The position numbers were made by a program, and so were the translations under genes. Below, piece after piece: positions 8,948-53,262 of a stretch of 64,000 nt of DNA; position 1 is the stretch's first letter; every line of letters starts with the position of its first letter. Source of the DNA: a virus (lineage: Duplodnaviria; Heunggongvirae; Uroviricota; Caudoviricetes); IMG/VR virus record IMGVR_UViG_3300046694_000587, one strand, 5' to 3'. The notes under the pieces were generated by a model. That model was not told where the DNA came from. It was given only the letters and a program-made list of their open reading frames with translations, and made no database searches.

Positions 8948-9088
8948 CCCCCGTATAGCGGTATGCGAGCATGGAAGCGCGGTGACGAAAACAAAAAAGC
9001 CGTTTTACAGTGAGACTATTTTTGTCAATCTTGATACGCGTGTTATCGGTGTTGATGAGCCGCAATTTCCGACGCCGACGCGGCTGCG

Positions 9089-9283
9089 TCACTCGTTCTC
9101 GTATCCGGTCTCAATCCGTTCAGCGATTTTTCCGAGTTCGAAGCCCATATTGAACATCGCGTTGTTGTCACGCCGAGTCACCACCCGCGAGCGTGCCACA
9201 TTGCGGCCGAGCACGATGGCTTTTGCCACGCGCAACAAGAACGCTTCGTAGCGCGCCTTCAGTCGGAGGCGCGTTGTCCTCAT
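9089..9283 (-). CDS. hypothetical protein (64 aa), coupled to the upstream lipoprotein gene
   Basis: ATGA overlap at 9280-9283. Confidence 0.3.
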   Translation of the reverse strand: MRTTRLRLKARYEAFLLRVAKAIVLGRNVARSRVVTRRDNNAMFNMGFELGKIAERIETGYENE

Positions 9284-9852
9284 GGCGTCACGCCCCAAGA
9301 CTTCTCGACGGGCACGTATCGCTGATGCAGCTTGACCGCCATCTGGATGGAGCGTGCAGCATTCTGCAGACGCTTTTTGATTGCGTCGTCAAACTGGTCG
9401 TGAATGACGATGGTCTTGCGTACCTGGCCCACCACACGACCGCCACGCAGCTCGAAGCGGTACGAGCCGCTCTCGACGAATCTTGAGAAAACCTCGTTGC
9501 TGTAGCTGCCAATGCACTCTAAATCGACGCCATTATTGCGGTCTCGTTGCGCCGGAGTGCTCTGGCTTTCCAGGTTGATGGACCCGTCATCCCTATTCAC
9601 CGAGAAGTGATACAGGAGTCCATCCTCGAACAACACGGTGGTGTACCACGTGTCGTTGTAGCTGCACACTGACACCGTGGAGACAGTTTCTTTGGTCGCG
9701 TCCGGAGCCACTGTCTGGAAGTAATCGGCCAGAACCGGTGACTCCACATAGCCCTCTGGCGCGCGCGAGCAGGCAGTCACGCTCAGGAGCACCGCGGCTG
9801 CGGCCAAAAACGATTTGAGACGTGTTCGCATGACGAGTTGGACCCTGTTCAT
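9280..9852 (-). CDS. putative lipoprotein
   Basis: signal peptide plus lipobox LSVTAC. Confidence 0.5.
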   Translation of the reverse strand: MNRVQLVMRTRLKSFLAAAAVLLSVTACSRAPEGYVESPVLADYFQTVAPDATKETVSTVSVCSYNDTWYTTVLFEDGLLYHFSVNRDDGSINLESQSTPAQRDRNNGVDLECIGSYSNEVFSRFVESGSYRFELRGGRVVGQVRKTIVIHDQFDDAIKKRLQNAARSIQMAVKLHQRYVPVEKSWGVTP

Positions 9853-9855
9853 CCG

Positions 9856-10347
9856 TTACCAGCCCTTGCGCGCAGACTGCACCGCGCTAACGCGGTCGAG
9901 CACGCGGGTGATGTCGTCGAGTTGCGAAACGATTTCAGCGCGAGTCAAGGCCGACTGACCGTTTTCGGCGTCGCGCTTGAGCTGCATGGCCAGTTCGTTG
10001 CGCTTCTGGATACACCGGACCTTGTATTCTGACAACGTCTCGCCGATAAGCCCGAACTCCGTCTTGCCCGTCGGGATACAACCCGTGACTTCCAGCGCGC
10101 CGACCAGGCCGTCGTAGAGCGCTTCCTTGCTGTTGTACGCGAGCTTCGCGACACCGGCAGTCACAGGGCGAACATAGGTCTTTTTGAAAGAAGCCAGGGC
10201 TGCGCCGAACGCAACGAGCCCGCGAGGGTACTCATACGTGCGGACCCAACCCCGGTTGGAGGCTGCGCTCAGCTCGGCCGGCGTCGCGAAAACACCTTGG
10301 CCTTGTTCAGCTTTTTGAAAATAGTCGATGGAGACGATTCGGGACAT
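9856..10347 (-). CDS. hypothetical protein (163 aa)
   Basis: RBS GGAGGGG upstream of the ATG. Confidence 0.45.
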   Translation of the reverse strand: MSRIVSIDYFQKAEQGQGVFATPAELSAASNRGWVRTYEYPRGLVAFGAALASFKKTYVRPVTAGVAKLAYNSKEALYDGLVGALEVTGCIPTGKTEFGLIGETLSEYKVRCIQKRNELAMQLKRDAENGQSALTRAEIVSQLDDITRVLDRVSAVQSARKGW

Positions 10348-10532
10348 GGCCCCTCCGTTCAGGATAGGTAATGGACTGCCGCCTGACCGCGCGACATTGA
10401 ATTCTCGTTAATATACTATGTAATAGCACATAAGGCAACTTTGCAGACTTGCAATTTGCTGGACCCGGCGCCGAACCTGTGATATATACCGTTTAATGAT
10501 TCGCCAACGGTTTCACCGACCTATACTGACGC

Positions 10533-10604
10533 ATGCTTAACCTGACCACCACAGCCACGACCACTACCACTTCGCGAAAGTGGCGGGCGTGCTTTGTCGG
10601 CTGA
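10533..10604 (+). CDS. Thr-rich leader peptide MLNLTTTATTTTTSRKWRACFVG (attenuator leader)
   Basis: 23 codons, 8 Thr codons including runs TTT and TTTTT; starts 7 nt after the CTATAC motif; followed by terminator 10625-10656 and then the ThrRS paralog. Confidence 0.55.
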   Translation: MLNLTTTATTTTTSRKWRACFVG

Positions 10605-10624
10605 ATCAGTTCAACCTCAATCAC

Positions 10625-10656
10625 AAACCCGCCCACCGAGGCGGGTTTTCTTTTTC
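10625..10656 (+). terminator. attenuator terminator upstream of the ThrRS paralog
   Basis: AAACCCGCC-caccga-GGCGGGTTT followed by TCTTTTT; GTGGCGGG (10580-10587, inside the leader ORF) can pair with the 5' half of the stem as an alternative structure. Confidence 0.55.
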
Positions 10657-10671
10657 TACGCGAGCCAAAAC

Positions 10672-11862
10672 ATGAAGCACTCATACATCGAAGCAGCCCA
10701 GAAGCTTGACCTGTTCCATATCGAAGACCATTCGCCGGGCTTTGCCTGGTGGCACCCGAACGGCCTGCGCCTCATCGAAGCCCTCAAGAGCCTTATCCGC
10801 GGCGTGCATGAGCGGTACGGCTACGAGGAAGTGAAGACGCCCAATATCACGGGTGTCGAGCTGTTCGAGCAGTCTGGCCACCTCGCCAAGTTCCGCCAGA
10901 ACATGTTCGTGATGGAAGGCGCCGACGGCGAGCGTACGTATGCGGTTCGCCCGATGAGCTGCCCGAATCACATCCGCGTGTTCGACGCGCGCCGTCGCAG
11001 CTACGCCGAGCTGCCGTTCAAGGCCTTTGAGTTCGGCGAGGTCGTGCGCAACGAGCCATCGGGTAGCCTGCAGGCGCTGTTCCGCATGCGCGGCTTCTGC
11101 CAGGACGACTCGCACGTCTTCGCGATGGAAGAGCAGGTCGTCGAGGTCGTGGCCGACTACATCTCGATGTCGCGCGAGCTCTACAAGGTGCTCGGCTTCG
11201 ATGAGGTCCGGTACCAGATTTCGCTCCGTCCGGAGCAGCGCTTTGGCGAGGACGCGCTCTGGGACAAAGCCGAAGACATGCTGCGCGCGGCGTGTCAGCG
11301 CAATGGGCTCGCCTGGGTTGAAGAGGAGGGCGGTGGTGCCTTCTACGGACCTAAGCTTGAGATGCACCTCACGGACAAGCTTGGCCGCAGCTGGCAGATG
11401 GGCACGATTCAGCTTGACTACGTGCTGCCACGCCGGTTCAAGCTGGACTACCTGAGCCGCGACAACCAGCTCGAGGTGCCGGTCATCCTGCATCACGCCG
11501 TTCTGGGGTCCCTGGAGCGCTTCATCGGCGTCCTGCTCGAGCAGTACGGCGTCGACCTGCCCGGACTGCTACGGCCCATCCAGGTGGCTCTGGTGGGCGT
11601 TCGCGAGAGTGAGAGCGCGTACGTGCGTGACCTGGCTGCCCAACTGAAGTTGAAAGGGATGCGGGTGAAGTGTTTTGTGGGTGACGCGCGTCTGGGCGAC
11701 AAGGTGAAGGCGGCCGAACTGGAGCACCCGGGAGTCATCGCCATTGTCGGAGGCCGGGAAGCTGACCAGGGAAAGGTCTCCATTCGCGAAGCCGGCGGCG
11801 CAACGCGCGTCGTCGACAAGCAAGCGTTCCTCGACGAATTGCTGATGCGCTGCCAGGCCTGA
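10672..11862 (+). CDS. threonyl-tRNA synthetase catalytic core plus anticodon-binding domain; N-terminal TGS/editing domains absent
   Basis: 396 aa; colinear with E. coli ThrRS residues ~243-642; class II motifs FRMRGFCQDDSHVF and GGGAFYGPKLEMH. Confidence 0.85.
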   Translation: MKHSYIEAAQKLDLFHIEDHSPGFAWWHPNGLRLIEALKSLIRGVHERYGYEEVKTPNITGVELFEQSGHLAKFRQNMFVMEGADGERTYAVRPMSCPNHIRVFDARRRSYAELPFKAFEFGEVVRNEPSGSLQALFRMRGFCQDDSHVFAMEEQVVEVVADYISMSRELYKVLGFDEVRYQISLRPEQRFGEDALWDKAEDMLRAACQRNGLAWVEEEGGGAFYGPKLEMHLTDKLGRSWQMGTIQLDYVLPRRFKLDYLSRDNQLEVPVILHHAVLGSLERFIGVLLEQYGVDLPGLLRPIQVALVGVRESESAYVRDLAAQLKLKGMRVKCFVGDARLGDKVKAAELEHPGVIAIVGGREADQGKVSIREAGGATRVVDKQAFLDELLMRCQA

Positions 11863-11872
11863 TGCGCGTATG

Positions 11873-11905
11873 AAAAAGGCCGCTTCGATGAAGCGGCCTT
11901 GAGTT
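11873..11905 (-). terminator. hairpin terminator (T-run on the minus strand; possibly bidirectional)
   Basis: AAGGCCGCTTC-gatg-GAAGCGGCCTT. Confidence 0.5.
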
Positions 11906-11915
11906 GCTGCGTTAG

Positions 11916-12578
11916 TTACAGGTCGAGCGCGGTACCGTGCTGAACATCCTTGACGGTGATGCCACGATAGCTCAGCTGGGCATGCAGTTCCTCGATGCGG
12001 TTTTGAACCGCGCGCATCTCGGCTTCCGAGGTTGTCGGGATACGTACGCGAACGGACCAGGTCTTGTCTTCTATGGGGCTCGGGAAACAGCGGATGCTGC
12101 ACAACAAGGGCTCTGCCAGGAAGGGTGTCCTGATTTTCGAACGAACGTCCAGCCACGAAAAGCAATTGCCTTGACTCACACGGGCAACCTTTGGCCGGGC
12201 CTTGGTAACGCGCGTTGCATCAAGAACCTCCATCGCGACGTCATGGATTCGGAGAATCTCCGCTTCAACTGACTCCTTCAGGTCCTGGAAACGGCTGGCA
12301 CCCATACCCAGCAGCATTTCGGCGCGCAGTGCATACGCGCGATAGCCCAGTTGGGGAGACTCGGCCAGCAACTGCAAAAGGTTCGGATAGTGAGCGATGG
12401 CCGCTACCCAAGCCTCATACTCGGTGTCGAATTCCACATAGCTACCGCGGCCGTAGAAAAGCTTCTTCTTGCCTTGCCCGGTGTCCGTCCAGGTAATCTG
12501 GTGGTCAGCCTTGAAATCGTGGAAGCTGAAATATTTGACGTTCAGCAATGCCACCAACGTTTCAGTTATAGCGCTCAT
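11916..12578 (-). CDS. hypothetical protein (220 aa)
   Basis: long ORF; CTATAC motif (gtatag at 12612) upstream on the minus strand. Confidence 0.45.
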   Translation of the reverse strand: MSAITETLVALLNVKYFSFHDFKADHQITWTDTGQGKKKLFYGRGSYVEFDTEYEAWVAAIAHYPNLLQLLAESPQLGYRAYALRAEMLLGMGASRFQDLKESVEAEILRIHDVAMEVLDATRVTKARPKVARVSQGNCFSWLDVRSKIRTPFLAEPLLCSIRCFPSPIEDKTWSVRVRIPTTSEAEMRAVQNRIEELHAQLSYRGITVKDVQHGTALDL

Positions 12579-12671
12579 GAGATATGTCCTCTCGGGGTTG
12601 TAGACAACTCCGTATAGGAAAAAAGAAGAGCGCCCCGTAGGAGCGCTCGTGAGAGGATTACTTCGCTGACA

Positions 12672-12911
12672 TCAGGCCAGCAGCGGTTTAATGAACCAGT
12701 TGTAGATACCCGTGATAGAGGTAAAGGTGAAGCCGACTTGCATGGTCACCATCCCCCAGGCACGCGTGCGCACACCGTACCCCAGCCAGAACACGTTGGA
12801 CGTCAGGAACGCGACGAACCCGTAGCCTGAAACCGGAACTTTTAGCGCCAGCAGCAACGAACCCAGAATGCCAAGAATGGCACCGGTCCACTCGACGACT
12901 TTGATGTTCAT
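12672..12911 (-). CDS. half-size PnuC-like (3-TM) membrane transporter
   Basis: 79 aa; WTGAILGILGSLLLALKV...NVFWLGYG matches the PnuC repeat-unit motif W..G......K.....N..W.Y. Confidence 0.45.
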   Translation of the reverse strand: MNIKVVEWTGAILGILGSLLLALKVPVSGYGFVAFLTSNVFWLGYGVRTRAWGMVTMQVGFTFTSITGIYNWFIKPLLA

Positions 12912-13405
12912 ACCGCCTCGCGAACAGGAACCACGCTGATGATTTTCTGCTCCATCAGCTTCAGGTTTTCCAACAACAGGTCGCCTTGCTTAATCGGGTC
13001 TAGCGAAGGCAATTTCTGGTGGTCACCGATGTAGCCAGGATTCACGCCCGGGAGCAGGTGAATCTTGCGAATGCCTGCCGCACGCAGCACGCGAACAGCG
13101 TACTCAGCGAAATCACGTGCCGAACCGTTCTCACTACGCTCTTTCTCCAATGCGCGCGCGATGGCACGCATCGTCCAGTAGCCTTTCTTCAGCGAGTCCA
13201 GGCCAATGACCGAATAGTCGTTGGACAGGCCGTGGTCCCAGGCATAGGTTTCCCCATGTGAGCCGCCACCCGCCTGACAGCTGATTTTCAGCGTGACGCC
13301 GCGACCGAACATCTCGTAGACGTAGATGTAGATGTGCGCGTAGCCATTCTGGCTCGTTGCGGTTGCTGTTGCGTATACCGGATTGACCTTGCGAATACGA
13401 GTTGC
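12908..13405 (-). CDS. hypothetical protein (165 aa)
   Basis: strong RBS AGGAGAG before ATG 13405; ATGA-coupled to the PnuC-like gene; gtatag at 13466 upstream. Confidence 0.4.
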   Translation of the reverse strand, partial: ATRIRKVNPVYATATATSQNGYAHIYIYVYEMFGRGVTLKISCQAGGGSHGETYAWDHGLSNDYSVIGLDSLKKGYWTMRAIARALEKERSENGSARDFAEYAVRVLRAAGIRKIHLLPGVNPGYIGDHQKLPSLDPIKQGDLLLENLKLMEQKIISVVPVREAV

Positions 13406-13490
13406 CATTACTGCTCTCCTTTTTCCTTGATGAACCGTTTCCGGCTCGGTTAGTCCCACAAACTCGTATAGCTTTGGGTTCACCAAGAAA

Positions 13491-14393
13491 TCAGCCATGC
13501 GCGAGAGTGCCGGCGAATAGGGCCGCACAGCGCGCTGTGACCGCCACCGTGTAGCCGCCTTCGAGCGAGGCAACGACCGGGGCATCCAGGCTGAGCAGTC
13601 CCTTCGCGAGCCACTCATAGTCGGCGTCGACCAGGCCCAAACGACCGAGCGGGTCCGCGCGGTGAGCATCGAAGCCGGCCGAGACGACGACTAGCTCCGG
13701 CTGCCAGGCCTTGAGTGTTTCGAAGAACCCCCTCCAGGCTCGAAGAACCTCATCTCGGCTCTCGCATTTTTTGCGAAGAATGTGATTCGGCCGAGTTACT
13801 TTCTGCATGAACGCGCCCGGGTATCCTGGTTGGTACGTCTCAGCGAACAGGAAATCAGATTCCGGCTTACCCAGCAGGCCCATGACCGTTCCATTGCCCG
13901 AGTGGGTGTCAAAATCCAGCACAGCAATACGCCGTACGCCGCGCGCCTTCGCGTGAAAAGCCGCCACCAGCGCAGTGTTGACGAAGCAGAACCCGTCTCC
14001 GCCTTGATAGTCCGCGTGGTGGCCTGCGTACACGGGATTGAATGCGTGCTGGATGCGGCCGGCGAGGATGGCGTCTACCGCCTGGCAGGCAGCGCCTGCT
14101 GAGAGCCGCATGGCGCGCCAGGTGTGACGGTTCATCGAGGTATCGGGCGCCAGTTCGATGCTTTCACCCTCCCGCAGCGATTCCGAGCGTGCCAGATAGG
14201 CCAGGTATTCGGGGTGGTGTGCGCGCTCAAGCTGCTCTGCCGTCGCAAGTTCAGCGAGCTCGGGGCGCACATTGTCGAGCGCGAGAACAGCGCGTGCTAC
14301 GGTCGCGATTCGCTCTCGGTCCATCGCCGCGTGATTGGCGTGGAGGTCATGCAGGAAGATGTCGGGGTGCCAGAAAACGGCGGTCGTTGTCAT
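13491..14393 (-). CDS. histone deacetylase-family (HDAC/acetoin utilisation-like) Zn-dependent deacetylase
   Basis: 300 aa; PVYAGHHADYQGGDGFCFVN, VLDFDTHSGNG, SAGFDAHRADPLG, EGGY. Confidence 0.75.
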   Translation of the reverse strand: MTTTAVFWHPDIFLHDLHANHAAMDRERIATVARAVLALDNVRPELAELATAEQLERAHHPEYLAYLARSESLREGESIELAPDTSMNRHTWRAMRLSAGAACQAVDAILAGRIQHAFNPVYAGHHADYQGGDGFCFVNTALVAAFHAKARGVRRIAVLDFDTHSGNGTVMGLLGKPESDFLFAETYQPGYPGAFMQKVTRPNHILRKKCESRDEVLRAWRGFFETLKAWQPELVVVSAGFDAHRADPLGRLGLVDADYEWLAKGLLSLDAPVVASLEGGYTVAVTARCAALFAGTLAHG

Positions 14394-15139: not shown

Positions 15140-16606
15140 TCACGCTGCTTCTGCTGCGGACTGGCCGATGATGGCGCCAGCTGCTGCGTTGCCCGAAGCC
15201 GCGCCCACCACCGCACCTGCAGCCGCGCCGTTCTTCAGCAGCGGCGCGAAGCCTTCAATGAGCTTCTGGCCTTCCGGCGTCTGGCCGAGTGCTGCCAGCA
15301 TGCCCGTCAGCTTCGTGCCGCCCGCCGGCGTGAAGATGTCGCCGAGACGGGCCACGCCTTGCTGCATGTCGCCCGAGTTTGCGATGACCTTCAGGTCGGC
15401 GGTCTGCATGGCACGGGCCATTTCGATACCGACTTCGCGACCGGCCTTGACCTGTTCGATGGTCACCAGATACTGCTGGTAACCCGGGTTCGAGCCGATT
15501 TCTTCCGCCAGCTTGATTTGCGTGACAACCGGCGCCATCAGCATCGCCTGTTCGGCGGCGGCCGATGCTTCACCGCGCGCCTTGATACCTTCGGCATCCT
15601 TCAGCGCGGCGGCCAGCTGACCTTCAGCCTGCGTCGTCGTCGCCTGACGTTGCGCTTCTGCGCTCACGACTTGCACTTCCTTCGCGGCTTCGGCATTCAC
15701 CACTGCCACGCGCTTGTCCTGCTCGGCGCGCACGGTCGCCACATCGCGCTGAATTTCAGCGCTCCGCACTTCGTTAACACTGCGCAGGTCCATGTCGCGT
15801 TCGGCGGTGGTCTTCGCCGCCGTCTTGATGTCCTGTTGCGCCAGTTCGTTGGCGATGCCCACGGCCTTTTCCTTCTCGGCCGTACGCTGCCCGACCTGCT
15901 GCGCTGCGTCCTGGCGTTGAACGTCGACCGTACGCTGAGCGTCGATTTCGGCCAGTTCAGCGAGGCGCTTGTTTTCCGCCACGGCGACGCGCGATTCTTT
16001 GTCGATGCGCGACTTTTCCTTGGCCATCACGTTGGCGATAACCGTGCTGCCTTTGGCATCGAGTAAATTCATGAACTCGATAGTTTTCACGGTGACCACG
16101 CCCCATTGCGTGACCTGCTCCTGCACTTCAGCGGTGAACTGGTTTCCCAGCTCCGAGCGCGACTGCATGATGTGCTCGAGCGTATTCGTCGCCAGTACAC
16201 GACGCACCGCACCTTGCAGTACGGCATGCAGGTCGGTCTTCAGCGCTTCGAAAGTTGCCACGCGTTGAGCCGCAGTTTCTGCATTGTCTACCCGAAAAAA
16301 TGCAACGGCCGTGACCTCAAATGGAAGCCGTGCCATGTCATATGCTTCGTAGTCCGAAAGAGATACTTGGAAGATGCTTTCCGGGAAGCTAGAAATCGTC
16401 ACGCCTAGCTTCGGCACCCAGGTCGGGAACGCGTAGTAGGTATTGCCGGCCGGCTTGCCGCGGCCGTACGGCGTGCTCGAGCGCGTCGTTTGAACGATGT
16501 GAACCATGTTGGTCGGAACAACGCGACGCAACATGATTGCGGTCAGCAGGGCTACGAAGCCCGCGAAGACCAAAATGCCAATCAGGGCGGTCAGAATGAC
16601 GCTCAC
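15140..16606 (-). CDS. SPFH/band-7 flotillin-like membrane protein
   Basis: 488 aa; N-terminal TM helix, SPFH core, long A/E/Q-rich coiled coil, Gly/Ala-rich C-terminus. Confidence 0.7.
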   Translation of the reverse strand: MSVILTALIGILVFAGFVALLTAIMLRRVVPTNMVHIVQTTRSSTPYGRGKPAGNTYYAFPTWVPKLGVTISSFPESIFQVSLSDYEAYDMARLPFEVTAVAFFRVDNAETAAQRVATFEALKTDLHAVLQGAVRRVLATNTLEHIMQSRSELGNQFTAEVQEQVTQWGVVTVKTIEFMNLLDAKGSTVIANVMAKEKSRIDKESRVAVAENKRLAELAEIDAQRTVDVQRQDAAQQVGQRTAEKEKAVGIANELAQQDIKTAAKTTAERDMDLRSVNEVRSAEIQRDVATVRAEQDKRVAVVNAEAAKEVQVVSAEAQRQATTTQAEGQLAAALKDAEGIKARGEASAAAEQAMLMAPVVTQIKLAEEIGSNPGYQQYLVTIEQVKAGREVGIEMARAMQTADLKVIANSGDMQQGVARLGDIFTPAGGTKLTGMLAALGQTPEGQKLIEGFAPLLKNGAAAGAVVGAASGNAAAGAIIGQSAAEAA

Positions 16607-25612: not shown

Positions 25613-26053
25613 TCAGTTACCCTTCGCCACATAGCGAAGGGCTCGAACGCTCGTGAGCAATTGAGTACGTTCAGCCAGTATAGATTTGGCTTCCCGAATC
25701 AATGTCGCTGTCGCACGGTAATGCTCTGTCTTGCGCTTGAGCGCCAGAATCGGGTCGCGGTCCTGCGCGTCCAGGTTCGTACCCATGAGCACGCCCGGCT
25801 TGTCTGTCGTGCCCGCTGTCCAGTTGTATTGCATCCAGCGGGGGTGCGGGCACCCCGTGCAGCGTGGGCCGCAGGGATACAGCTCCAGGCACACGGAGCC
25901 CGATGCCACCGGCTGGACCGCCTTGATTTCATTGTGAAGCTCGGAGAGCCTCGAGTTGAGCGCGTGCAGCCGGTCAAGAACCCGGTTGAACATGCTCTCC
26001 ACTCGCGTTTCCGCCGCAATAGCCGCTTCGCGGGCCTGGACAATATCCGTCAT
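25613..26053 (-). CDS. Cys-cluster hypothetical protein (putative Zn-binding)
   Basis: CLELYPCGPRCTGCPHPRW. Confidence 0.4.
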   Translation of the reverse strand: MTDIVQAREAAIAAETRVESMFNRVLDRLHALNSRLSELHNEIKAVQPVASGSVCLELYPCGPRCTGCPHPRWMQYNWTAGTTDKPGVLMGTNLDAQDRDPILALKRKTEHYRATATLIREAKSILAERTQLLTSVRALRYVAKGN

Positions 26054-32472: not shown

Positions 32473-33456
32473 ATGACTACGACTATCAAGCTCATCACGC
32501 ACGACCGCGTGTGCCATGCGGACGAAACGTTCGCTTCGGCCATCCTGCGCATCGCTTTTGGCCAGGTGACGGTTCTTCGCACGCGGGACCCCGAAATCCT
32601 TCAACGGGAAGCAGGGGCTCCGGACACTTTCATGCTCGATGTGGGCGGCCGCTACGACCCTGAAAAGCGGCTGTTCGACCACCATCAGCCGGAAGGTGCT
32701 GGATTGCGCCCGCAACCGCCAGATAAAGGCGCGGGAGGCGGTCACCGGCCGGTTATGGAGTGGCCTTATGCCACAGCAGGTCTGGTGTGGAAGTTCTATG
32801 GCGCGCAGGCGGTACGCAAGCTGCATCCATCGCTGGATGACGCTTGCGTTGAAGAGATTGTGCAGTACATCGACGACACCGTGTTGAAGTACATCGACGC
32901 CGTCGACTGTGGTGTGCATCTCAAGTCGTCCGGGCCATCCCTGTCGGCAATCATCGCAAGCTTCAACACGACCTGGTATGACCGTGAAGAAGATGTATTC
33001 CCGCTCGTGATGGACTTGGCTCAGGTGCTGCTGACCAACTTCGTGAAACGCTACGCCGGAAAGGTGATGGCGCGTAACAAGGTGCGGGACTCGCAATCAC
33101 GTCTCGACGGCCGGGTACTCGTACTCGAAGCCTGCATCCCCTGGGTAACGATTGTTGCCGAAGAGATGCCCGAGGTGCTGTTTGTCGTGTATCCGGTCGG
33201 TGACGCTGACAAAGGTACGGGACAGTGGCAGTTGCGCCAGGCGGTCCAGCCGGACATGACTCCGCGCATCAGGCTGCCGCAAAGCTGGGGCGGACTGGAG
33301 CGTCAGGCTCTGGCTCGCGTGTGTGGTGAACACGAAGCAGTGTTCTGCCATCGCTCACGTCACCTCGCCGGGGCTTTGTCCCTGGAAGGTGCGCTGAACA
33401 TGGCCGGCGCTGCTATTCGTGAACACAATCAGTGCGCGGAGCTTCAAGCCGCGTAG
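32473..33456 (+). CDS. MYG1/UPF0160-family metal-dependent exonuclease-like hydrolase
   Basis: ITHDRVCHADETFASAIL matches the TH.G.FH.DE signature. Confidence 0.55.
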   Translation: MTTTIKLITHDRVCHADETFASAILRIAFGQVTVLRTRDPEILQREAGAPDTFMLDVGGRYDPEKRLFDHHQPEGAGLRPQPPDKGAGGGHRPVMEWPYATAGLVWKFYGAQAVRKLHPSLDDACVEEIVQYIDDTVLKYIDAVDCGVHLKSSGPSLSAIIASFNTTWYDREEDVFPLVMDLAQVLLTNFVKRYAGKVMARNKVRDSQSRLDGRVLVLEACIPWVTIVAEEMPEVLFVVYPVGDADKGTGQWQLRQAVQPDMTPRIRLPQSWGGLERQALARVCGEHEAVFCHRSRHLAGALSLEGALNMAGAAIREHNQCAELQAA

Positions 33457-33577
33457 GTCAATTCTGACTTACTTCTCCCCCGGGTTTTATACCTGGGGGT
33501 TTTTCATTCCCTCGCGCGGGGTTAAAGCGTCTGGCAGGGCTCTCCCTATACTGAGTACCTACCATTTCGGAGTATCC

Positions 33578-34984
33578 ATGCAGTCGTCGGAATCCCTGGT
33601 TCAAACCTCCGCTGTCGCCACCAGCCATCGCTTCAACTACGTGCTGGACACCAATGTCCTGCTGCATGACCCCGACGCGCTGTTCCGCTTCGAGGAGCAC
33701 GACATCAACCTGCCGCTCGTCGTGCTTGAGGAGCTGGACCGGCACAAGAAGGGCGTGGCGGACATTTCGCGCAATGCCCGCCAAATCACCCGCACGCTGG
33801 ACTCACTGCTCAAGGCAGGCTCCATGGCGGACGGCTTCGAGCTCGCCTATGCGTCCGAAGGCCGCGCGACCGGCAAGCTGTATTTCCGCAACTCCAGCGA
33901 CCTGAGCGCGAAAGAAGGAGTCGGTATTGGGCTAGAACAAGGCAAAGCTGACAATCAGATTCTGAACTGCGCGCTGAAGCTCCTGAAATCGGTCGGCAAC
34001 GCGGTACTGGTCACGAAAGACATCAATCTACGCGTGAAGGCGTTGGCGCTCGACATCCCTGCGCAAGACTACCGCAGCGACCGCGTACTCTCCGACGAAG
34101 ATGTGCTGCCCACGGGCTTTCAGACCATCGACGAATCCTTCTGGGCGGAGCACATCGACGGAGACAAAGGATTCCATCGCCGTGGCGGCAAGCAGTTCGC
34201 CAATGTCACTGTGCACCTGCCCATCAACTCGTTCCTCGCTGAACAGGTGTCACGCAATCGCACCCGCTTGTGGCGTGTCGAAAGCAATTCGGCCTCGGGT
34301 TCGGTCCTTTATGCGTTGCAGAACCAGAGTCCGGTCGACGGCAAACCGCTGCTCGACGCACGCAATGAAGAACAGCAGATGGCCGTGAATCTGCTCCACG
34401 ATGAAGACGTCGACTTCGTGGCACTGCTGGGCAAGGCCGGCTCAGGCAAGACCTTGCTTGCACTGGCCGCTGGCCTCGAGCAGGTCAAGAAGGGCCGCTT
34501 CTCGGGCGTGATTATCACCCGCGCGACGGTGCCCCTCGGCGAAGAAATCGGCTTCCTGCCTGGCTCCGAAGAAGAAAAGATGAACGCGTGGCTCGGCGGT
34601 ACGCTGAACGACTGCTACGCCGCACTCGGAATCGAAGACGAAAAGAATCCGTTGCGCCAGAAAGTCTCCATCGCGTCGATGGCGTTCATGCGCGGCCGCA
34701 GCTTCCAGGGTAAGTACATCATCCTGGACGAAGCCCAGAACCTGACCGTCAAGCAGGTCAAGGCGTTGCTCACGCGCGCTGGCGACGGGTCCAAGGTGGT
34801 GCTTACCGGAAATTTGAGCCAAATCGATACGCCATACCTGGACGAAGGCACGTCGGGCCTCGCATGGGCAGCCAAGAACATGGAGGATTGGGCCCACGCA
34901 GGTCACATCATCCTGCCGCGCGGCGTGCGCAGTCGCCTTGCAACCTACGTCGAAGAACTCGACGAATCGGAGAACCAAGGCTAA
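33578..34984 (+). CDS. PhoH2: PIN-domain RNase fused to PhoH-like ATPase
   Basis: PIN YVLDTNVLLHDP...VLEELD; Walker A GKAGSGKT; PhoH core. Confidence 0.8.
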   Translation: MQSSESLVQTSAVATSHRFNYVLDTNVLLHDPDALFRFEEHDINLPLVVLEELDRHKKGVADISRNARQITRTLDSLLKAGSMADGFELAYASEGRATGKLYFRNSSDLSAKEGVGIGLEQGKADNQILNCALKLLKSVGNAVLVTKDINLRVKALALDIPAQDYRSDRVLSDEDVLPTGFQTIDESFWAEHIDGDKGFHRRGGKQFANVTVHLPINSFLAEQVSRNRTRLWRVESNSASGSVLYALQNQSPVDGKPLLDARNEEQQMAVNLLHDEDVDFVALLGKAGSGKTLLALAAGLEQVKKGRFSGVIITRATVPLGEEIGFLPGSEEEKMNAWLGGTLNDCYAALGIEDEKNPLRQKVSIASMAFMRGRSFQGKYIILDEAQNLTVKQVKALLTRAGDGSKVVLTGNLSQIDTPYLDEGTSGLAWAAKNMEDWAHAGHIILPRGVRSRLATYVEELDESENQG

Positions 34985-48206: not shown

Positions 48207-50627
48207 TTAGCGATAGATGGCGGCCAAAGCACGGCACATGTCGTCGACAGTTTGAGCAGGAACGGCGTTCAGCTTACCCAGCGCAAGCAGCAATGGATAT
48301 TTGCCCTTCAAGTCCTCATACACCACACCGTAGTCGACCATGCCCAGCTCATTGACGCGATTCAGTGTTGCAATCATCTCCTTGCGGGAGTCCGAATCTG
48401 TTGGCTGCTCTTCGAGATTCTTTCCGACCAGCCCCAAGGCGCTACACAGCTTCTGAAATTCGCCCGACAGCGAAGCGGCCGAATGAATCTTCAGCTCACC
48501 CGATAGCAGGTCGACGTACTGAGCCATAGCCTTGTCAAAGGTCGTACCCGTCAGCTCCATGCGCGGTCGACGCGACAGTGCCTCACAGAACTGGTTAAAT
48601 TCCCAATTCTCCTTGACCGCACGGACCCGCTTGCCGGCCAACAGCGCCTGAACATCGGACCGTTCCAGCAATTCAGAGAGCGCTTCTTCAAAGGTCTTCC
48701 AGGATTTGAGCGCCTTGATAGCACGCAAAGTCTCCTGGCCGTCCTCATCGTCAGCGAACTCGTCGTCGGCCATGTCCCACAGCCCGTCTTCCTGAACCGA
48801 GACTTGCGCCTTGGTCAGGTCGGCTTGCTGCTTGGGAGTCAACAAATACAGCCTGTCGACCCTCAACGCGCCCAGAATTGAAGCGAGATTGCCTTCACCC
48901 CAACGTTCGGAAAGGTCAGCCAGAAACACGCCGGCCTTGAAGCCGTCGATTGCGCCGCCATCCTTGCCGAGCCAGACGCGAACAGGTTCCGCCGAACTAT
49001 AGGTCGCAAAACCCATGGTCGCAGTATCCTGTTTCGATTCGGACCGGCTATAGAACGTAAGCTGACTCGCACGCGAACGGGACGCGACCACTGTCTTCCC
49101 GACGACTACACGCGCCACCGTCGGCATTGCCGAAGTCCGGAAGACTTCAAGCGCGCCGCCGAATGCCGCATTGAGTGCGTCAGATGCCTTCAGGGCATCG
49201 GCCGGGTCGTCTGCGGTCAAGTACACAAACTGCTGTTTACCGTCAAAGGCACGAAGCCAGCCACGAAAGCGCACCGTACCTCCCGTCTTCATGTCGTTGA
49301 CCACGAGGGCCACCGGATGATTCGGCAGGAACGTCACTCGGGGATATTCCTTCCCGTCCTTCAAAGCCAGGAAGCGATTCATCGAATAGCCTTCCCGCAA
49401 AGTCGGGTCGCTCGTCGACGTGCTCTTGACCGTGATGGTGGACATCTCGGGAACGTATGGAATCTTCATGAGCCCACGCCAGATGTCGTTGCCGGTCGCT
49501 TCTTTCAGCGGTTCCTGCAGGACGCCCTCCGCGCGAGTGCCACGAGCAAACCAGTGCCACGTTTCCGTGTTGCCGAGCAACCGCGACAGCTGACCCTTGG
49601 TGCGAAATACGGGGGACATGAAAAGCTCCCTCGCTTTCACAACAATTGCCTTCGCCGCAGCAGCGTCGATACGCTTCAGAAGTTCGGTCACCTCGTCGGT
49701 GTACTTGAGTTCTTCGCGCGACGGCATGAACGGCACCCCAAAAGACAAGGGGATTTCAACAATCATGCCGTCCTTGAACACCGACTCATCGCCGGCCGGC
49801 GACTGAACGTGGAACGGCAAACCGCCCACGCCAGCCTCCTTGTTGGTCAACACCACGAGGGAACCCTGTTGCACGCCCTGACGGCCGTACTTGAGGTTGT
49901 TTCCCATCATCGGATAGACCAACACGCCCTTGAGCCCTTCGTCGACAGTTTCGAGGTCAATCACGGTGCCGTTGAACTCCGGCAGCATGCAAGGAAGTGC
50001 AGGAGGTGTGTCCACGGAGAACGAGTCCCCCATGGTCAACTGCATTACTTCCTTGAGCCACGCCACCGCCCGCAGTGCTTCGACGATGTCGGTCTCCTTG
50101 ACGGGGAAGTTCACTTTCGTGCCTGCCACCGTACCTGGAGTCGTTCCCGCCGGCTGCACCTTTGCCTTTGCATCCGGCCCCTGGTACTGGAAGTACGTGT
50201 GTTCGACCATTTCGCTGGCATGGCAGGTGGTGATGTAACACTCACGGATATAACCGTAAGCCGCCCACCGACCCACACCCAGGCCACCCGCTGAACCGTT
50301 GTCGCCCGCCTTGGTAGACGAGCCCATCGACAGGTAGGTGGTGTTCATGAACTCCTGGGTCATACCCTCGCCCTTGTCGATGATGGTAATCATCGGGTTG
50401 GACGGCGTCGGCAGTTGCACCAGCACCCCTTCAGAAAAGGAGAGCCCTGAGCGTCTGGCCGCATCGCAGGCATTCTGGATAGCTTCACGGATAGCCGACA
50501 TCAGGATGTAGACATAGACCGTGGACAACATATCAATGAGCGTGCCATTGAAGTTCACCGTCACGTCCATTGCCTCGCCCACCGCCTCAACCTGCGCCGT
50601 GCGCGTATTTGTCGTGATAACTGCCAT
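48207..50627 (-). CDS. GHKL-superfamily ATPase, Hsp90-like N-terminal Bergerat fold
   Basis: N-box IREAIQNACDA, G1 IIDKGEGMT, G2 GGLGVGRWAAYGY; 806 aa. Confidence 0.55.
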   Translation of the reverse strand: MAVITTNTRTAQVEAVGEAMDVTVNFNGTLIDMLSTVYVYILMSAIREAIQNACDAARRSGLSFSEGVLVQLPTPSNPMITIIDKGEGMTQEFMNTTYLSMGSSTKAGDNGSAGGLGVGRWAAYGYIRECYITTCHASEMVEHTYFQYQGPDAKAKVQPAGTTPGTVAGTKVNFPVKETDIVEALRAVAWLKEVMQLTMGDSFSVDTPPALPCMLPEFNGTVIDLETVDEGLKGVLVYPMMGNNLKYGRQGVQQGSLVVLTNKEAGVGGLPFHVQSPAGDESVFKDGMIVEIPLSFGVPFMPSREELKYTDEVTELLKRIDAAAAKAIVVKARELFMSPVFRTKGQLSRLLGNTETWHWFARGTRAEGVLQEPLKEATGNDIWRGLMKIPYVPEMSTITVKSTSTSDPTLREGYSMNRFLALKDGKEYPRVTFLPNHPVALVVNDMKTGGTVRFRGWLRAFDGKQQFVYLTADDPADALKASDALNAAFGGALEVFRTSAMPTVARVVVGKTVVASRSRASQLTFYSRSESKQDTATMGFATYSSAEPVRVWLGKDGGAIDGFKAGVFLADLSERWGEGNLASILGALRVDRLYLLTPKQQADLTKAQVSVQEDGLWDMADDEFADDEDGQETLRAIKALKSWKTFEEALSELLERSDVQALLAGKRVRAVKENWEFNQFCEALSRRPRMELTGTTFDKAMAQYVDLLSGELKIHSAASLSGEFQKLCSALGLVGKNLEEQPTDSDSRKEMIATLNRVNELGMVDYGVVYEDLKGKYPLLLALGKLNAVPAQTVDDMCRALAAIYR

Positions 50628-52184: not shown

Positions 52185-52266
52185 GTAGCAGAAGTAGCTC
52201 AACTCAAGCCCGGTCACTTCGAGTGACTGGGCTTTTTTCTATACTCATTCCCGGCGCACATGCGCC

Positions 52267-53262
52267 ATGTTCACTGGATTTTCTGCAATGCACGAAGGCG
52301 ATAGCGCCAAAATAGAACAAATCGACCAGGCCACCCTGGTAGCGGAGCTTCTCAAGGAGCGAAAACGTGACCGGCGCGCCGGCGTGCTGAAGTCAGCGTT
52401 CTTCGTGGCGGCGACGCTCGCCTACATCTGGTACTGGTCGAGCCTTATCAATCCGGGCGCACAAGGTGACTTCGACGCTAGCAAGCCGTACGCGTCCGTA
52501 GTGAAGATTTCGGGCGTCATCGGTCCCGACAGCGACGCGAGCTATGAGTCCATCGCACCGTTGCTCAAGAAGGCGTTCGAAGACCCCATCTCGAAGGGTG
52601 TCGTGCTCGACATCAACAGCCCAGGCGGCACGCCGGTCCAGGCGAGCCTGATTCACGACTACATCCTCGACCTGAAGGCGCGGACGCACAAGCCGGTCAT
52701 TGCGGTGGGTGAAGACATGATGACGTCCGGCGCGTACATGATTGCGGTCGCCGCCGACCAGCTCACCGTGAACCGTTCGACGGTTACGGGTTCGGTTGGC
52801 GTCATCTCCTCTGGGTTCGGCTTCACCGGCATTATGGACAAGCTCGGCATCGAGCGACGCGTCGCAACCGCAGGCAAGTCGAAGAATCTGCTTGACCCAT
52901 TCAGCCCGCAGACGGACGACGGACGCGCGAAGCAACGTGAAATCCTCACGGCCATCCACGGCCACTTCATCGACATGGTGAAGGCCGGCCGCGGCGCGCG
53001 ACTCAAGCTCGACACGCCGGGCCTCTTCGAAGGCACCGTGTGGACGGGCGAGGACGCGGTGAAGCTTGGCGTGGTCGACGAGCTGGGTGACATCCGTCAT
53101 GCCGCCCAGAAGTACATCGGCGCGGAACAGACCGTGACGGTGGCCTCGCGCAAACCGATGCTGCAATCGCTGCTGTCCAAGGTTGGAGTGAAGGTGCTGA
53201 GCTCGGCCATCGACAGCGCAGTGCAAACCCCCGCTGAAACGCCGATGGCGACGTACCAGTAA
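52267..53262 (+). CDS. signal peptide peptidase SppA (S49)
   Basis: N-terminal TM; VVLDINSPGG...SGAYMIAVAAD...GSVGVI. Confidence 0.75.
   Translation: MFTGFSAMHEGDSAKIEQIDQATLVAELLKERKRDRRAGVLKSAFFVAATLAYIWYWSSLINPGAQGDFDASKPYASVVKISGVIGPDSDASYESIAPLLKKAFEDPISKGVVLDINSPGGTPVQASLIHDYILDLKARTHKPVIAVGEDMMTSGAYMIAVAADQLTVNRSTVTGSVGVISSGFGFTGIMDKLGIERRVATAGKSKNLLDPFSPQTDDGRAKQREILTAIHGHFIDMVKAGRGARLKLDTPGLFEGTVWTGEDAVKLGVVDELGDIRHAAQKYIGAEQTVTVASRKPMLQSLLSKVGVKVLSSAIDSAVQTPAETPMATYQ

Follow-up and report, generated by a model that had tools for sequence, protein, structure and literature searches.

A probable threonine-codon attenuator in front of a truncated threonyl-tRNA synthetase gene in a phage genome and in its relatives

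When does a phage that carries its own tRNA synthetase gene make the enzyme? Huge phages carry such genes (PMC7162821), and when and why large phages use their synthetases is largely guesswork, to which a regulatory element attached to one of these genes would supply part of an answer. Such an element appears to be present in a stretch of 64,000 nucleotides (nt) from the virus record IMGVR_UViG_3300046694_000587 (Caudoviricetes), hereafter referred to as the window, where a gene for a truncated threonyl-tRNA synthetase (thrS', product ThrRS') is preceded by a short open reading frame (ORF) rich in threonine codons and by an intrinsic terminator. Based on comparative data and folding models, we consider it very probable that this arrangement is a ribosome-mediated leader-peptide transcription attenuator that ties the expression of ThrRS' to the supply of charged tRNA-Thr. 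This reading draws on the occurrence of the same module in 12 of 13 lineages, a spacer of 20 nt, a computational scan of ribosome positions, a swap test of the competing RNA strands, a control set of canonical thrS loci, the absence of a separate promoter for thrS' and the intact active-site blocks of its product.

The first-pass annotation of this locus, made from the letters alone, had reported a 23-codon ORF with eight Thr codons in two runs, a strong rho-independent terminator at 10625–10656 and, directly after it, a ThrRS paralogue, and had recognized in them the architecture of an amino-acid attenuator. The ORF is there as described, a terminator scan found the terminator (stem 10625–10648), and the synthetase gene does follow immediately, although its start, previously put at 10673, is the ATG at 10672. 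The cognate codon run, the terminator and the competing antiterminator, conserved in 12 of the 13 lineages, bear out the proposed architecture. The elements discussed below are the following.

10521–10527, plus strand: CTATACT, resembling a –10 promoter element, 5 nt ahead of the ATG of the leader
10533–10604, plus strand: leader-peptide ORF of 23 codons (MLNLTTTATTTTTSRKWRACFVG), with the ATG at 10533 and the TGA at 10602–10604
10545–10571, plus strand: regulatory codon run, codons 5–13, consisting of eight Thr codons and one Ala codon, with all four ACN codons used
10547–10603, plus strand: predicted protector (1:2) helix, in which the Thr-codon region 10547–10572 pairs with 10578–10603 (from RNAalifold)
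10582–10587, plus strand: antiterminator strand (segment 2), GGCGGG, with the same sequence as the core of the terminator 3' arm
10625–10648, plus strand: intrinsic terminator hairpin, with 5' arm AAACCCGCC (10625–10633), loop CACCGA (10634–10639) and 3' arm GGCGGGTTT (10640–10648)
10646–10657, plus strand: T-rich tract of the terminator, TTTTCTTTTTCT
10660–10664, plus strand: putative weak Shine–Dalgarno-like element GCGAG, 7 nt before the thrS' start
10672–11862, plus strand: thrS', encoding a threonyl-tRNA synthetase of 396 amino acids (aa) with the catalytic core and the anticodon-binding domain

Threonine accounts for eight of the 23 codons of the leader, in runs of three and five. Among ~105,000 stop-free stretches of nine residues in the six frames of the 64 kilobases (kb), the only ones with at least six threonines are five overlapping stretches at 10539–10551; the Thr run of the leader is more than a product of chance. 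The stop codon is separated by 20 nt from the terminator stem, which the terminator scan detects as nine pairs, six of them G–C, followed by TCTTTTTCT. The ATG of thrS' lies 23 nt past the stem and 13 nt past the last base of the tail recognized by the scan; since the 23-nt gap between stem and ATG leaves no room for a promoter, all transcription of thrS' has to cross the terminator. At the position of the Shine–Dalgarno-like element, the relatives have GCGAG or GGAG. Two competing ORFs, one of 63 aa on the minus strand (10493–10684) and a TTG-extended one of 422 aa from 10594, were rejected as artefacts of ORF listing, as the gene calls and the homologues start at 10672.

Truncated ThrRS proteins of ~390–400 aa form a large family of roughly 6,300 members. 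We obtained upstream DNA for 13 distinct lineages with truncated thrS genes, with 49–100% protein identity to the window and GC contents of ~29–60%. In 12 of these, a short ORF with a run of 5–9 Thr codons is followed by a copy of the terminator 3' arm and then by an intrinsic terminator, so that the search for homologous leaders that had been suggested with the first description finds them upstream of truncated thrS genes down to 49% identity. The lineages with a leader, their ThrRS' identity to the window and their leader peptides are listed here.

Window: 100% (reference), MLNLTTTATTTTTSRKWRACFVG
L187: 92%, MFKLTTTTTTTTTSRKWRACFVG
L086 (Burkholderia ubonensis): 89%, MLKLATTTTTTTTSRKWRACFVG
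L087: 83%, MFKQTTTTTTTTTSRKWRACFVG
L089: 81%, MLKLTITTTTTTTTSRKWRACFVS
L090: 76%, MFMLTTTTTTITTSVKWRSRIVG
L219: 74%, MMNRIRTTTTASTTTPPA
L094: 63%, MNFPQVINTTTTTTTTPQEVVG
L220: 61%, MQRLSLTLAVRPAPAGDTTTTTTTPSCRGGVPTPG
L095: 52%, MPRHLFATTTTTPTSGPEGRLGNGPLRNHQTNG
L221: 52%, MNKFVFNTTTTTTLLKAGLVGYCLE
L224 (a viral contig of 437 kb in IMG/VR, 29% GC): 49%, MHIVKNTTTTTTTQIEAGLVRYCR

The distant leader peptides have nothing but the Thr run in common. The close relatives differ from one another by synonymous changes in the Thr codons, with all four ACN codons in use, and in L090 the tail of the peptide has changed from SRKWRACF to SVKWRSRI, yet the nucleotides AAGTGGCGG are unchanged and AAGUGGCGG is kept. 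Together, the synonymous changes and the altered tail with its retained nucleotides point to selection on the codons and the RNA and not on the peptide product. Of 11 leaders measured, seven have exactly 20 nt between the stop codon and the terminator stem, among them three of the four most divergent; in L224 the distance is 21 nt. None of 72 canonical full-length thrS loci, which derive from a protein scan of representative genomes, has an upstream small ORF with at least five Thr in seven residues. The scan itself yielded no close relative, being swamped by canonical thrS of Gaiellales through the generic pattern SWQMGTIQ. A DNA pattern, ACCACTTCNNNNAAGTGGCGG, gave at least 120 matches in metagenomes, of which three were real (L131, L185 and L187, the last being the sole new leader variant among them) and the rest were chance matches in coding regions; three viral matches of the same pattern were likewise discarded as chance.

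From lineage to lineage, the antiterminator changes together with the terminator, as a swap test shows decisively. In this test, the 36-nt segment that follows the Thr run in each of seven lineages was paired with its own and with permuted terminator arms. The cognate combinations had a mean energy of –14.4 kcal/mol, compared with –11.9 kcal/mol (standard deviation 0.69) for the permuted ones; the cognate mean was reached by 0.04% of the 5040 permutations and by none of the 1854 derangements. The pairs concerned are GGCGGG:CCCGCC in the window group, AGGUGG:CCACCU in L094, GGUGGG:CCCACC in L220, GCGGGC:GCCCGC in L095 and GCUGGG:CCCAGC in L221.

The consensus fold of six close relatives (RNAalifold) consists of a long imperfect protector helix and the terminator. 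At the apex of the protector, CCACUU (10567–10572) pairs with AAGUGG (10578–10583) around the loop CGCGA; this stem is invariant in the six relatives and the loop varies (CGCGA, CGCGC or CUGUA). In the minimum-free-energy fold of the free RNA of the window, the Thr-codon region is also paired, in a shifted register, with 10580–10591, and the free RNA of L089, L094, L095, L220, L221 and L224 prefers the antiterminator (probability, P, 0.84–1.0). When the full leader of the window is folded at equilibrium, P(terminator) is 0.95 in free RNA; with a Thr codon in the ribosomal A site, its lowest value is 0.53 in the window and 0.01–0.17 in L086, L089, L090, L220 and L221. All dips are located within the Thr run or immediately ahead of it; the codons that come next show none.

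A strong terminator and a switch that is merely partial at equilibrium in the window are what one would also see if the ORF were a real micro-gene, or a meaningless frame, with a terminator of its own, and thrS' were expressed by constitutive leak-through without any sensing of threonine; it also has to be said that low-complexity runs of residues other than Thr are present elsewhere in the six-frame translations of the window. We regard this explanation as very unlikely, given that the Thr run is the sole conserved feature of the peptide in 12 lineages of very different base composition, down to 49% identity, that the segment following it co-varies with the terminator arm, that the spacer is so often 20 nt (seven of the 11 leaders) and that such an ORF is missing from all 72 canonical loci.

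Folding of the full leader at equilibrium, where the terminator dominates, discriminated poorly between ribosome positions. As attenuation is decided co-transcriptionally, the RNA was also folded as it would be present before synthesis of the terminator 3' arm, with a ribosome placed at each codon in turn. With the A site on the Thr codons, the core of the terminator 5' arm was sequestered by upstream RNA in all 11 leaders (P 0.67–1.0). The corresponding values were 0.01–0.3 with the ribosome on the codons after the Thr run and, in nine of the 11 leaders, 0.01–0.34 with the ribosome at the stop codon. L224, which was analysed apart from these eleven, behaves like them, and in both L221 and L224 sequestration is low on the codons that immediately follow the run. 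In the window, GGCGGG (10582–10587) pairs with CCCGCC (10628–10633) at P 0.87–0.95 with the ribosome modelled on the Thr codons, at 0.06–0.16 with the ribosome on codons 15–23 and at 0.29 with the ribosome at the stop. Folding has thus brought out mutually exclusive structures, as the first-pass annotation proposed to look for, in the form of a probable protector, the terminator and an antiterminator; the segment GTGGCGGG that it had singled out at 10580–10587 is present there, and the pairing with the terminator arm that it envisaged forms, in the models, with the ribosome on the Thr codons and is lost as the ribosome moves on.

Part of this behaviour could be expected from a device that responds to stalled ribosomes or translation stress in general, akin to antibiotic-responsive upstream ORFs, or from a translation-coupling device, neither of which would be specific for threonine. 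The untranslated RNA of L089, L094, L095, L221 and L224 is already predicted to favour antitermination, so that termination would need a ribosome crossing segment 2, and any slowdown of elongation before that segment would yield read-through. In every case, however, the stall region consists of Thr codons, cognate to the downstream enzyme and including several of the ACN codons, and no other residue is enriched. As such cognate-codon specificity is a hallmark of amino-acid attenuators, we consider a device indifferent to threonine improbable.

The variation of the loops bears on another possibility, that of an autoregulatory operator bound by the synthetase through mimicry of the tRNA-Thr anticodon arm, or of a tRNA-binding element of the T-box type, with the ORF being incidental. 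ThrRS' has kept its anticodon-binding domain, and the E. coli enzyme regulates its own mRNA (as cited in PMC2965389). On the other hand, no T-box or other structured-RNA Rfam match supports such an element at E-values up to 10, and the loops vary both in the terminator (CACCGA, CTTGA, CTCC, CATTCC etc.) and at the protector apex. The conserved parts are the codons, the terminator and its competitor, and the structure lies upstream of the ribosome-binding site of thrS', not over it. We accordingly give an operator or T-box-like element almost no credence.

ThrRS' matches the Pfam domains PF00587 (tRNA-synt_2b) and PF03129 (HGTP_anticodon) and scores 384 bits against TIGR00418 (thrS; cut-off 383.65). 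The latter match is confined to model positions 175–547 of 565, so ThrRS' comes without the N-terminal TGS/editing part; its start corresponds to residue ~242 of the E. coli enzyme, and the proteins from the canonical thrS loci are longer at the N-terminus by a median of 250 residues. In an alignment with solved ThrRS structures, residues 9–377 of ThrRS' coincide with the crystallised ΔN fragment of the E. coli enzyme, 1evk. The residues aligned to the MNCPGH, QDDGHVF, LHRA, RGFTQDD and GSMERF blocks of these structures are retained; we take these blocks to represent the Zn ligands and class II motifs 2 and 3. With its active-site blocks apparently intact, ThrRS' looks catalytically plausible. 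A role as antibiotic self-resistance ThrRS of the ObaO/BorO type was considered and ruled out. Replacement of Y462–G463 in the E. coli enzyme by Tyr–Ser, i.e. of the Gly next to the catalytic Tyr, confers resistance to obafluorin and borrelidin (PMC11252418); ThrRS' keeps AFYGPK, that is, Tyr–Gly.

In the mechanism that we propose, the CTATACT box would direct transcription, probably with the A of the leader AUG as the first base, and a ribosome would translate the 23-codon leader. Should Thr-tRNA-Thr be scarce, the ribosome would stall among the eight ACN codons (codons 5–13) and cover the 5' strand of the protector helix, leaving GGCGGG (10582–10587) free to capture the emerging CCCGCC (10628–10633); with its 5' arm captured, the terminator would not form and RNA polymerase would read into thrS'. 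Should Thr-tRNA-Thr be plentiful, the ribosome would cross segment 2 and reach the UGA at 10602, and segment 2 would be masked or re-paired with the Thr-codon region. With segment 2 unavailable, the terminator would form, and transcription would stop at ~10650–10658 with the release of an RNA of ~120 nt. The resulting feedback would let the editing-less ThrRS' be made only when charging of tRNA-Thr in the infected cell is insufficient. As in classical systems, such a switch would rely on kinetic, co-transcriptional capture. What we infer here comprises the start site, the translation of the leader from a leaderless mRNA, the occurrence of termination and read-through as such and the signal that sets off the switch in the cell.

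The promoter motif CTATAC that had been noticed in front of the leader ATG proves to be significantly recurrent. In its 7-nt form, CTATACT, it has nine copies in the window (at 10521, 33546, 39864, 52239 and 55224, and on the minus strand at 25677, 27613, 28302 and 38016), compared with 0.8 expected, and none of 100 shuffles reaches nine. Most copies are intergenic and 16–63 nt upstream of ORF starts, and one directly follows a terminator; the motif is probably the phage's own –10-type promoter element. The alignment of six relatives is conserved from the CTATACT box on and not upstream of it, the distance from box to ATG is always 5 nt, and a pyrimidine directly precedes the A of the leader ATG. 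Judging from this spacing, there is about an even chance that transcription starts at or next to A10533 and that the AUG is 5'-terminal, making the leader mRNA leaderless. The more distant L094, L219, L221 and L224 have ordinary 5' untranslated regions, two of them with sigma-70-like promoters and Shine–Dalgarno sequences; leaderless initiation would therefore be a feature of the clade and not essential to the mechanism.

Several points weigh against the attenuator. In the window, P(terminator) at equilibrium drops only to 0.42–0.59, a partial effect, because the terminator is far more stable than the antiterminator. The probability that the arm is sequestered in free RNA differs between relatives (0.09–1.0), so that the outcome in the absence of translation would vary from one to the next. 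With the ribosome held right on the stop codon, segment 2 is no longer masked in L221 and L224. Taken locus by locus, dinucleotide-shuffle tests of the antiterminator gave weak results (fractions 0.008–0.35). One lineage, L092/L093 (67% identity), has neither leader nor terminator, and its thrS' lies 34 nt after an FKBP gene; it appears to be a natural attenuator-less variant. Most of those truncated thrS genes of huge phages that have ≤43% identity are without a clear leader. The CTATACT box has no recognizable –35 partner, a transcription start 7 nt instead of 6 nt after it would remove the AUG, and attenuation would fail altogether if the locus is transcribed by a phage RNA polymerase of a kind that ignores intrinsic terminators.

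In an alignment-based scan of IMG/VR, truncated ThrRS genes were common in viral contigs (13 contigs of 289–578 kb), and among the large contigs a clear Thr-run attenuator was seen only in the clade nearest to the window (L224). Other upstream regions show different arrangements. In L271 (2749–4330; a contig of 289 kb with 28% GC), the truncated thrS lies inside a tRNA cluster, with tRNA-Thr(GGU) at 2908–2979 between an upstream terminator and thrS and tRNA-Thr(UGU) at 4240–4327 right after thrS. The upstream ORF of L271 (MTTIIRNMNNNINRTRTTLGLSDKVLSFMKR) has scattered Thr codons, and GGGCUUUC inside it is complementary to the base of the terminator; this may be a degenerate or a different attenuator acting on a unit of tRNA-Thr and thrS. 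L265 has, at ~2830–3000, a strong Shine–Dalgarno sequence, a 6-codon ORF (MTRTTS) and, from the stop codon of this ORF onward, a long hairpin. In L268 and L275 (~2840–3000), the upstream gene ends in PITTETTTTTASA and PITTETSTTTAKD, respectively, and a hairpin overlaps its stop codon, with a T-run only in L275. These three loci are possible variant leaders in which a ribosome stalled on Thr codons would mask the hairpin directly.

Some further features of the relatives deserve mention. The neighbours of thrS' in L092/L093 (6001–7206) are NAD-salvage-type genes (PRPP synthetase-like and NUDIX/NrtR) and a radical SAM gene. A tRNA-Met(CAU) gene of L219 (2551–2624) is located ~70 nt upstream of the Thr leader. 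L221–L223 are AT-rich contigs of 1.54 megabases (Ga0247725_1000001 and Ga0310131_000001) with a truncated thrS of 376 aa, whose neighbours are mostly unannotated genes, an NAD-dependent ligase and DsbA; their Thr leader closely resembles that of the viral contig L224. The contigs may represent a small bacterial genome, a prophage within such a genome or an entity exceeding known phages in size.

The window itself, with ~60% GC, derives from a phage, as had been supposed, judging by its genes for a head protease, an rIIA-like protein and PhoH. No tRNA genes were found in the 64 kb. The genes and gene products of the window that bear on this assignment, or that were otherwise identified, are the following.

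48210–50627, minus strand: rIIA-like protein
52267–53259: head-maturation protease (PHROG 53, E = 3.5e-42)
Elsewhere in the window: PIN-PhoH protein, topoisomerase, RecJ, ATP-dependent ligase and 5'–3' exonuclease
Elsewhere in the window: DUF2828 protein (PHROG 850, annotated as RNA-binding protein)

Two of the CTATACT copies border genes of this list. At 52190–52270, CTATACT comes directly after a strong hairpin and its T-run (AGCCCGGTCACTTCGAGTGACTGGGCTTTTTT), and 21 nt on lies the head-maturation protease gene, an apparent terminator–promoter junction bordering the structural module. The copy at 33546 lies within a listed ORF (33419–34984), 25 nt before the ATG of the 468-aa PIN-PhoH frame, and this gene may start at ~33578. 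Upstream of the leader, the divergent gene 9856–10347 (minus strand) has a sigma-70-like promoter, TTGCCT-17-TATATT, within 10380–10440 (minus strand), overlapped by a motif ATATACT(G/A)T that occurs at the same place in L086, L087 and L187, where the remainder of the intergenic region is unrelated. Downstream of thrS', two genes on the minus strand (12672–14393) are kept with it in most relatives. They encode a 79-aa membrane protein, whose counterpart in L089 is a weak match to the nicotinamide mononucleotide transporter PnuC, and a 300-aa enzyme of the histone-deacetylase family (PF00850, E = 4.5e-52); a Band_7 protein (15140–16606) comes after the deacetylase-family gene. The membrane protein, the deacetylase-family enzyme and the Band_7 protein make up an unusual auxiliary set for a phage.

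A megablast search of window positions 9000–13000 against the INPHARED phages and PLSDB plasmids gave no matches, and a single-protein scan of IMG/VR found no close relative of the window. Metagenome contigs of up to 78 kb encode a ThrRS' identical to that of the window, in the same gene order, and a protein with 89% identity is found in assemblies of Burkholderia ubonensis (L086). The latter locus (GCA_001528095.1, LPBK01000018.1:537909–551099) lies on a 640-kb contig of a cultured Burkholderia, as a block syntenic with the window (5'–3' exonuclease, DUF2828, FKBP, leader with thrS', deacetylase) whose edge adjoins chemoreceptor and MFS-transporter genes. The block could be a prophage, a remnant of one or a large episome, and its occurrence in Burkholderia suggests a host.

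We regard the element as a genuine member of the classical attenuator class, placed on a synthetase gene of a phage and kept as a module across distant genomes. The mechanism itself is of the textbook kind, and it is the setting that tells when the phage wants a synthetase of its own: built for production only when ribosomes stall on Thr codons, ThrRS' would be a conditional backup and not a constitutive replacement. Leader-peptide attenuation would thereby be widened to a new pair of amino acid and synthetase, to phage genomes and, probably, to leaders translated from a leaderless mRNA in a proteobacterial phage. As the module recurs from ~29% to 60% GC with co-varying arms, it offers a clean natural dataset on how attenuators are maintained, and the near-identical copy in the cultured B. 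ubonensis assemblies makes the prediction testable at the bench.

A broader proposal, which we put forward tentatively and at slightly less than an even chance, is that attenuator and editing-less thrS' form a self-contained, horizontally mobile cassette, a charge-sensing backup synthetase co-inherited across huge phages and bacteria whose base compositions differ widely; the cassette in a phage would sense the collapse of tRNA-Thr charging in the infected host and turn on the phage enzyme in that situation alone and, in the clade of the window, would be transcribed leaderless from the phage-specific CTATACT box. If this were true, the triggers of such a collapse would be starvation, shut-off of the host thrS, ThrRS-targeting antibiotics or a defence system, and the element would make the question of why synthetases are found in large phages directly accessible to experiment. 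To our knowledge, it would then also be the first leader-peptide attenuator of the amino-acid type to be demonstrated in the genome of a phage.

The first-pass annotation had called a leader attenuator on a synthetase gene in a phage unusual. This holds less than was implied, in view of the attenuators on pheST, trpS and leuS and of a weak case for thrS. In the literature searched for an attenuator on a phage synthetase gene or on a proteobacterial thrS, nothing was found. Within window positions 9800–11200, there was no match to the Rfam models Thr_leader (RF00506) and T-box at E-values up to 10; lacking a Thr_leader match, the element is an analogue of thrL and not its homologue. The best Rfam match, to Leu_leader (RF00512) at 24 bits and E = 0.027 over the full model length, is below the gathering score of 50 bits and reflects the common architecture of stem, spacer and terminator; the codons here are those of Thr and not of Leu.

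In the enterobacterial thrABC operon, thrL resembles the phage leader in having ~20 codons, ~8 of them for Thr, and an intrinsic terminator with competing upstream structures. The thrL leader also has Ile codons. It differs from the phage leader in governing threonine biosynthesis genes, whereas the target here is a synthetase and Ile is sporadic (L089, L090).

For thrS itself, the sole leader-peptide case found in the literature searched is a proposal, and a weak one, from Streptomyces, where leaderless leader peptides occur upstream of aminoacyl-tRNA synthetase genes: in S. lividans, a leaderless short ORF before thrS, 'thrL', has been proposed to be a Thr-dependent leader peptide (PMC8079986). 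It shares with the phage locus the position of the short ORF upstream of thrS and a leaderless mRNA, which is predicted here. The S. lividans ORF (MKRVRPFLETTPGFVPAR) has two Thr codons and no clear rho-independent terminator and precedes a canonical actinobacterial thrS, unlike the phage leader with its run of eight Thr, strong terminator and co-varying antiterminator.

A tRNA synthetase gene in a large phage genome is in itself in keeping with the huge phages, whose synthetase genes have been catalogued (PMC7162821); what distinguishes the present gene is the cis-regulatory sensor apparently attached to it. Expression of the synthetase would follow the need for charged tRNA-Thr, a purpose shared with the T-box that controls thrS/thrZ in Firmicutes and with the translational operator at thrS in E. 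coli. The sensors differ, being the uncharged tRNA for the T-box, the enzyme on its mRNA for the E. coli operator and, here, the translating ribosome.

Functionally, the closest counterparts would be the attenuators on other synthetase genes. The E. coli pheST attenuator has the leader peptide pheM. Leader-peptide attenuation is described for pheST in gamma-proteobacteria and predicted for trpS and leuS in Streptomyces (PMC1262725). Like these, the phage locus has a short ORF in which cognate codons abound, together with an antiterminator and an intrinsic terminator, ahead of the synthetase gene, with a predicted feedback on tRNA charging. Unlike them, it concerns threonine and a phage-borne, N-terminally truncated paralogue instead of the housekeeping enzyme, it bears no sequence relationship to them, and its leader ORF begins 5 nt after a –10-like box and is probably translated without an untranslated leader.

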